Made by a program: the position numbers and the translations under genes. A stretch of 39,681 bases of DNA from Escherichia coli (lineage in GTDB: Bacteria > Pseudomonadota > Gammaproteobacteria > Enterobacterales > Enterobacteriaceae), in the NCBI RefSeq assembly GCF_003334815.1, contig NZ_QOWO01000035.1; one strand, given 5' to 3'. This document shows positions 16,788-17,081 of this stretch, in pieces (the stretch's first letter is position 1; the number at the start of each line of letters is the position of its first letter). Below the pieces are notes generated by a model. It was given only the letters and a program-made list of their open reading frames with translations. It did not search any database and was not told the origin of the DNA.

Positions 16788-16935
16788 CAGCTCAATACTA
16801 TTAGCCAGTGGCTAACATTGCAAGAATTAGCGATTTCTTCAGCTGGCGGAGGGAGCACTTCGGTATATATCGCAGTGACGATTTATATACTTTCACTGGG
16901 TCATCGTCATATTAAGCCTTGTCCGAATCCGGATG

Positions 16936-17018
16936 TAAAAAAACCGACTTTGCGTCGGTTTTTTACTTTCCAGCCCTGAGTTGGTGGCTCTGACTGGAGT
17001 GAGATAGCCATCATCTAA
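16936..17018 (-). ncRNA. agrA: Second antisense sRNA paralog (I believe AgrA)
   Basis: Same architecture as the first copy: ttgcaa (17054-17049), 17-nt spacer, tagcat (17031-17026), then the identical terminator hairpin plus U7. Weaker complementarity to dinQ than the first copy. Confidence 0.55.
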
Positions 17019-17081
17019 CGCATCAATGCTAATACCATACTGAAACTATTGCAAGGACGTGCTGGTTTTATAACCTGCATG

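Follow-up and report, generated by a model that had tools for sequence, protein, structure and literature searches.

[quoted passage not shown] The promoters, their start sites, the constitutive expression of the Agr RNAs and the divergent layout are already known, all having been published by Weel-Sneve et al. 2013 (PMC3567139), who gave -10 and -35 elements, primer-extension starts and two LexA operators for K-12. A reading made from the sequence only re-describes a locus characterised in 2013, and its value lies in confirmation and in corrections concerning the quality of the promoters and the identity of the antitoxin copy.

Locus, small RNAs and transcription starts

The window, i.e. the whole stretch of 39,681 nt analysed here (contig NZ_QOWO01000035.1), contains the arsR–gor intergenic region and, inside it, the dinQ/agrAB type I toxin-antitoxin locus (Table 1). 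The intergenic region is 879 bp long and 99.9% identical to that of MG1655 (one mismatch), with PagrA and PagrB regions identical to those of MG1655; for the promoters there is essentially no difference from the K-12 locus described earlier (PMC3567139; PMC5066626). Window and NC_000913.3 positions add up to 3665081, and by this rule RefSeq agrA (3648063-3648144) maps to window 16937-17018, adjoining dinQ, and agrB (3648294-3648375) to 16706-16787, adjoining arsR; these are, respectively, copy 2 and copy 1 of the preliminary description. The locus has the make-up of a dinQ/agrB type I system, with a small hydrophobic toxin open reading frame behind a long 5' UTR and divergent from the sRNA. 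Elsewhere in the window, GadY and agrA lie closer together than in MG1655, by about 1.2 kb, which means that the window strain differs from MG1655 itself, and further Rfam matches were obtained to GadY (150 bits; 1308-1421), ES205 (105 bits; 7200-7271) and ES036/CssrF (42 bits; 25796-25836), all on the minus strand.

Table 1. Features of the dinQ/agrAB locus, given as window positions.
Feature	Position	Strand	Basis
AgrB sRNA, functional antitoxin in K-12	16704..16788	-	Rfam RF02891 108.4 bits; RefSeq; TSS
agrB start	G16788 (dRNA-seq Class I) or T16787 (RefSeq, primer extension)	-	FWD_(I)-3646316
agrB promoter -10 TAGTAT, 4/6 vs TATAAT, spacer 17 nt	16795..16800	-	base-by-base check
agrB promoter -35 TTGCAA, 4/6 vs TTGACA	16818..16823	-	base-by-base check
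AgrA sRNA, paralogue non-functional vs K-12 dinQ allele	16935..17019	-	Rfam 106.2 bits; RefSeq; TSS; PMC5066626
agrA start	G17019 (dRNA-seq Class I) or T17018 (RefSeq)	-	FWD_(I)-3646085
agrA promoter -10 TAGCAT, 4/6, spacer 17 nt	17026..17031	-	base-by-base check
agrA promoter -35 TTGCAA, 4/6	17049..17054	-	base-by-base check
Candidate second weak LexA operator, tgCTGgttttataacCTGca	17060..17079	+	inference; overlaps dinQ -35 region
LexA operator 1, TACTGTATGATTATCCAGTT, CTG-N10-CAG	17082..17101	+	sequence check; HI 4.83 in PMC3567139
Likely dinQ -10 TATGAT, within LexA operator 1	17087..17092	+	position relative to dinQ +1
dinQ start	A17098 (dRNA-seq Class I) or G17099 (primer-extension numbering)	+	RVS_(I)-3646006
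Agr-binding segment of dinQ 5' UTR	17186..17219	+	repeat comparison; G88-A119 pairing PMC5066626
dinQ ORF V, GTG start, 27 aa (V/M)IDKAIIVLGALIALLELIRFLLQLLN	17293..17376	+	translation; RefSeq dinQ
Stem-loop terminator common to convergent dinQ and gor	17393..17423		terminator scan; PMC3567139

Both RNAs match the Rfam AgrB model over its entire length (1-84/84 each; 16704-16787 and 16935-17018) and far above the gathering score of 40. [quoted passage not shown] The agr terminators (16704-16735 and 16935-16966; AAAAAACCGAC-GCAAA-GTCGGTTTTTTT) are symmetric A-tract/T-tract hairpins that could act in both directions; our terminator scan did not report them, probably since such stems absorb the T run.

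Transcription starts have been mapped by two methods. Primer extension located both Agr starts within a start sequence identical in agrA and agrB, and 'consensus like -10 and -35' elements were reported for the two genes (Weel-Sneve 2013, PMC3567139); the sequence shared at the start is GTTAGAT. In the differential RNA-seq data of Romero et al. 2014, the starts of agrA, agrB and dinQ appear as FWD_(I)-3646085, FWD_(I)-3646316 and RVS_(I)-3646006; all three belong to Class I, i.e. they are TAP-enriched leading edges of transcription and hence primary 5' ends. The MG1655 coordinate versions concerned differ by 1977, an offset that we verified on GadY. In both agr copies the start is the seventh (dRNA-seq) or eighth (primer extension) nucleotide downstream of the -10, in accordance with the 6-8 nt proposed in the preliminary description, which had named starts lying elsewhere as the observation that would refute its promoters. 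All three dRNA-seq starts fall exactly 1 nt upstream of the primer-extension or RefSeq starts, on both strands; this offset is a difference between methods and no shift of coordinates. With dinQ +1 at 17099, the reported pairing of AgrB with dinQ G88-A119 (PMC5066626) puts the AgrB 5' end at T16787, and the same +1 fits all ten numbered residues in that paper (U16, C28, G88, G94, G106, A119, U167, U178, A182 and G184-G187).

The dinQ promoter and its proximity to agrA

The first LexA operator (CTG at 17084-17086, CAG at 17097-17099) overlies the dinQ -10 and +1. It had been placed about 28 nt from the agrA -35, and 27 nt (17055-17081) do lie between the two; the accompanying view of dinQ as a LexA-repressed toxin promoter is borne out by the LexA binding and SOS induction reported in PMC3567139. 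The same study described a second operator close to the first (HI 13.82), with the dinQ -10 and -35 overlapping both operators. This second, weaker operator was overlooked in the preliminary description. It most likely corresponds to 17060-17079, the only candidate that fits, which has a CTG-N10-CTG arrangement at 17062-17077 and lies 5 nt from the agrA -35. Our degenerate LexA pattern was drawn up ad hoc and serves to confirm coordinates only, not as a valid operator model. Further downstream, the repeat that makes up the 5' ends of agrB and agrA recurs in direct orientation, this third copy being the Agr-binding segment of the dinQ leader.

A consensus scan of 16000-18000 returned a sole promoter-like site, GTGAAA-18-GATAAT (9/12; 17120-17091, minus strand), which lies antisense within the dinQ leader and is directed toward agrA; its -10 falls in LexA operator 1. 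Such sites occur at chance frequency (2.3 expected), and no start is listed there by Romero et al. 2014.

The promoter interference that the preliminary description thought possible is speculative. It amounts to functional coupling of the two divergent promoters, which could arise by steric competition of two polymerases or LexA on the ~80-bp back-to-back region or by supercoiling, so that transcription of AgrA would alter how strongly SOS induces dinQ, or the other way round; we consider this unlikely. The starts (17018/19 and 17098/99) stand back to back about 80 bp apart, and some 8-10 bp separate the agrA -35 from the likely dinQ -35 region, and 5 nt from the candidate weak operator, a geometry so tight that each -35 falls within the -45 to -50 zone of the other promoter. 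Moreover, full-length dinQ RNA rises 3-fold in an agrA deletion, even with AgrA showing no productive binding to dinQ RNA (PMC3567139, PMC5066626). However, UV exposure, which amounts to LexA removal together with dinQ induction, leaves the levels of AgrA and AgrB unchanged (PMC3567139), and this speaks against LexA or dinQ promoter activity influencing the agrA promoter to any great extent. The 3-fold rise in dinQ RNA is equally explicable by an effect at the RNA level or by the inserted cassette. Divergent back-to-back promoters at such spacing commonly fire independently.

Probable core promoters of agrB and agrA

Base-by-base checking found the agr hexamers exactly where they had first been described, all on the minus strand, with precisely 17 nt between -35 and -10 in both copies and with a -35 that is indeed palindromic, TTGCAA being its own reverse complement. 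Use of this palindrome as a bidirectional -35 was considered and rejected, as the plus strand carries no -10-like hexamer 16-18 nt away. The pattern TTGCAA-N17-TAGYAT has only two sites in the 39.7-kb window, and these are the agrB and agrA promoters. Both keep the best-conserved TTG of the -35 and T1, A2, A5 and T6 of the -10. We infer that these exact hexamers are the ones contacted by sigma-70 and, from the start sites, that they are the same as those assigned by Weel-Sneve 2013.

The description of these promoters as 'near-consensus' is nevertheless overstated. Each matches TTGACA/TATAAT at 8/12 positions (4+4), which is below the mark of at least 10/12, and an extended -10 (TGn) is absent from both. 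The consensus scan, with its threshold of at least 9/12, reported neither of them; that threshold accounts for the miss, which we do not take as counter-evidence. The label 'constitutive strong' holds in its first half, given that the Agr RNAs are not UV-regulated (PMC3567139) and that AgrB abundance is independent of growth medium (PMC4681348); its second half claims too much.

A hexamer match of this quality is by itself no better than chance, since sites with at least 8/12 matches and a 17-nt spacer number 347 on the two strands of the window, or about one per 229 nt. Adding a requirement for TTG and TA...T leaves seven sites in the window, two of them the agr promoters, although this criterion was picked post hoc. 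What lifts the two promoters above chance is their position relative to the mapped primary 5' ends, the Rfam AgrB matches and the retention of the hexamer positions in divergent homologues.

It follows from the abundance of 8/12 matches in the window that the hexamers named here might be chance matches, the true elements being other hexamers nearby; for agrB, TTGCAA-15-AATAGT likewise scores 8/12. We hold this to be highly improbable, because that alternative is missing from agrA and from the plasmid homologues, whereas the register TTGnnn-17-TAnnAT is common to agrA, agrB and homologues, and a 15-nt spacer combined with a greater distance to the start is less favourable. That the ~84-nt RNAs are instead processing products of longer read-through transcripts, with no promoters at the agr sites, is scarcely credible: shorter, processed Agr forms do occur in a pcnB mutant and the 9/12 site at 17120-17091 lies further upstream on the same strand, but upstream of each copy stands the previous unit's terminator or the dinQ promoter region, and both 5' ends are Class I leading edges whose TAP enrichment (triphosphate) largely refutes this origin.

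The reading of the two motifs as promoters was examined further by comparing paralogues and homologues. agrA and agrB have CTTGCAAT and TAGYATTGA in common, with only about 30% identity over the 16 intervening spacer positions, and the repeat detectable by BLAST reaches no further than 14 nt beyond the terminator on one side and 16 nt upstream of the start on the other. Chromosomal variants were compared across several lineages of E. coli together with E. albertii and Escherichia sp. E1V33; TTGCAA is unchanged in five distinct agrB-type promoters and in eight distinct agrA variants (among them those of Escherichia sp. E1V33 and E. albertii). Within the core promoter of agrA type, the sole variation is C/T at the weakly constrained fourth position of the -10 (TAGTAT in O157:H7), and in the agrB-type promoter 8/8 variable positions lie outside the hexamers. 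As these promoters are almost invariant throughout, a constraint specific to the hexamers is inseparable from general conservation in the chromosomal set, and with so little divergence this comparison is weak evidence on its own.

Plasmids offer greater divergence. Agr-like RNAs are encoded divergently from dinQ/dqlB toxin genes on IncX1, IncI, IncK and IncHI2 plasmids, all of them with Rfam AgrB scores (50-70 bits) above the threshold and with model position 1 at the same anchor. A MAFFT alignment of nine distinct Agr-like promoters from the chromosome and these four plasmid groups showed T1 and G3 of the -35, T1, A2, A5 and T6 of the -10 and the start GTT.G to be invariant, with no spacer column conserved at 70% or more. 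The plasmid -35/-10 pairs separated by 17 nt are TTGCAT/TATTAT, TTGCTT/TAAAAT, TTGTTA/TATTAT, TTGCAG/TACTAT and TTGACA/TAGAAT. The 17-bp spacer was found in 7/9 homologue classes, the other two (L020 and L023) being ambiguous between 17 and 15 nt (TAGACA with TAATAT or CATAAT). Tandem pairs of Agr-like RNAs also occur on plasmids, at 436-523 and 682-769 of the IncI locus L016, where a sok antitoxin RNA adjoins the pair, and at 21-107 and 682-770 of L023.

The plasmid dqlB/agrB systems (pOXA-48, IncL/M, IncI1, IncX, IncB/O/K/Z; PMC12365149) resemble the chromosomal locus in having a homologous sRNA and toxin in divergent layout, with sRNA promoters in the register of chromosomal agr (TTGnnn-17-TAnnAT-6/7-G), and differ from it in acting as post-segregational killers and in their other hexamers. 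Some of these are nearer to consensus: one promoter of the tandem pair in L016 combines a perfect -35 with a near-perfect -10 (TTGACA-17-TAGAAT). Neither the homologous agrB of pOXA-48 nor the putative promoter of that gene tolerates transposon insertions (PMC12365149).

Scanning genome contigs with a 21-nt Agr core, a query too strict to set the phylogenetic range, gave matches in Escherichia only, plus one metagenome-assembled genome resembling contamination. The latter (SFGN01000043.1, labelled as a Lachnospiraceae MAG) carries a dqlB-like open reading frame (MINLLIIVLRAVVAVANALIAILELIRQFID) and an Agr-like RNA that, together with its upstream region, is identical to a locus of a Salmonella IncX1 plasmid (L019); it is probably a binning contaminant from an enterobacterial plasmid (L008).

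The cognate antitoxin across lineages

Both RNAs had been taken for antitoxins, which is wrong for this genotype. AgrB is complementary to the dinQ leader at 27/28 positions and AgrA at 21/28 in this window, so that only copy 1, AgrB, qualifies as the cognate antitoxin in this genome. In K-12, AgrB base-pairs to nt 88-119 of dinQ, prevents the processed +44 mRNA from being translated and confers protection on the cells, whereas AgrA neither blocks DinQ translation nor protects (PMC5066626, PMC3567139). The copy adjoining the SOS promoter is therefore the non-protective one in this genotype.

The model with the best support is the one already published. With a -35 that keeps TTG, a spacer of the optimal 17 bp and a -10 that keeps TA..AT, each agr promoter very probably directs RNA polymerase to start 7-8 nt past the -10, at the G/T of GTTAGAT. 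The resulting RNAs, about 84 nt long, consist of a 5' recognition tail, a hairpin in the middle and an intrinsic terminator. AgrB and AgrA are supplied constitutively by these sigma-70 promoters of moderately good quality. The divergent dinQ promoter, starting about 80 bp from the agrA start, is shut off by LexA bound over its -10 and +1. In this K-12-like genotype, AgrB occupying dinQ leader nt 88-119 prevents synthesis of the 27-aa membrane toxin, and AgrA is too mismatched to block DinQ production. Published work has demonstrated the mapped starts, the constitutive transcription, the control of dinQ by LexA and the action of AgrB, and the sequence elements are those seen here.

The arrangement of the locus varies among genomes. 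The PagrA-PdinQ segment is present in 4,611/5,426 complete E. coli genomes and the segment comprising PagrB and the spacer in 3,842/5,426, which implies that about 770 genomes have a single agr copy; some 815 of the 5,426 have neither segment. Two single-copy examples, with intergenic regions of 640 bp (L003) and 608 bp (L013) and one Rfam match each, are missing exactly one repeat unit of 231 bp, and the promoter that they retain is of the agrA type. In E. coli A4 (L002, 1612-1772), the shared repeat is the junction at which an agr body passes directly into the dinQ leader, at about +120, with PagrA, PagrB, PdinQ and the LexA boxes all deleted and the dinQ open reading frame still annotated; plasmid loci L014, L015 and L017 look alike in this respect.

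The three direct repeats (window 16761-16788, 16992-17019 and 17191-17218) share an 8-nt variable core, which co-varied between dinQ and one agr copy at the ten chromosomal loci compared. In the window and in L012, the dinQ core matches the AgrB-position copy, with 0-1 differences vs 5-6 for AgrA. In E69, L011 and O157:H7 the better match is the AgrA-position copy (1-2 differences vs 4-5 for the other), and in the single-copy loci L003, E. albertii, L005, E1V33 and L013 the dinQ core matches the sole copy, which has an agrA-type promoter, with 0-2 differences. That 4-5 differences matter for function is known from the plasmid system, in which the antitoxin ceased to work once 4 nt were mismatched and worked again after compensatory mutations, proving the base-pairing specificity of dqlB/agrB (PMC12365149). 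Across the 5,426 genomes, the dinQ target was of the K-12 type in 1,682, of type M in 2,033, of the O157 type in 310 and of type T in 422; these counts come from 54-nt queries covering the dinQ target only, and the agr pairings from the ten chromosomal loci. Target alleles other than the K-12 type are also carried by E. albertii and Escherichia sp. E1V33. Between the core of K-12 AgrA (TAGCCATC) and the target of the T allele (TAGTCGTC) there are just two differences, each of them wobble-compatible, and the same pair occurs in L013.

AgrA was proposed in 2013 to be a 'partly degenerated' copy (PMC3567139). Judging from the co-variation of the cores, we lean slightly towards the view that the promoter driving the cognate antitoxin depends on the lineage, being the AgrB-position promoter in K-12 types and the AgrA-position promoter in the other lineages sampled, with AgrA of K-12 having the other specificity. 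The sequences suggest that K-12 AgrA is an antitoxin of different specificity rather than a degenerate duplicate, and that in most lineages the cognate antitoxin is transcribed from the promoter adjoining PdinQ. Antitoxin specificity would be reshuffled by exchange between the three direct repeats, which would also delete one agr copy or all three promoters. A literature search found no paper stating that the cognate Agr copy is lineage-dependent, and it may be a new observation that the dinQ target of E. albertii and of most lineages of E. coli matches the AgrA-position copy; T1TAdb already permits the choice of the better-pairing paralogue, and the idea of lineage specificity may thus be implicit in existing resources.

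[quoted passage not shown] The RNAs and peptides of the two systems, however, show no sequence relationship, a tandem paralogous copy of the antitoxin is absent from tisB/istR-1, and no longer, LexA-regulated sRNA isoform is known for dinQ/agrAB. The zor/orz and shoB/ohsC systems share the gene arrangement and an antitoxin that pairs in the toxin 5' UTR (PMC4147584), but are neither SOS-regulated nor homologous to dinQ/agrAB.

If the lineage dependence is true, the K-12 model of a functional AgrB and a degenerate AgrA would be a minority arrangement in E. coli, and the locus would be a natural case of antitoxin specificity switching through recombination among short direct repeats. Such a swap of the cognate antitoxin between lineages could matter for research on type I toxin-antitoxin systems.
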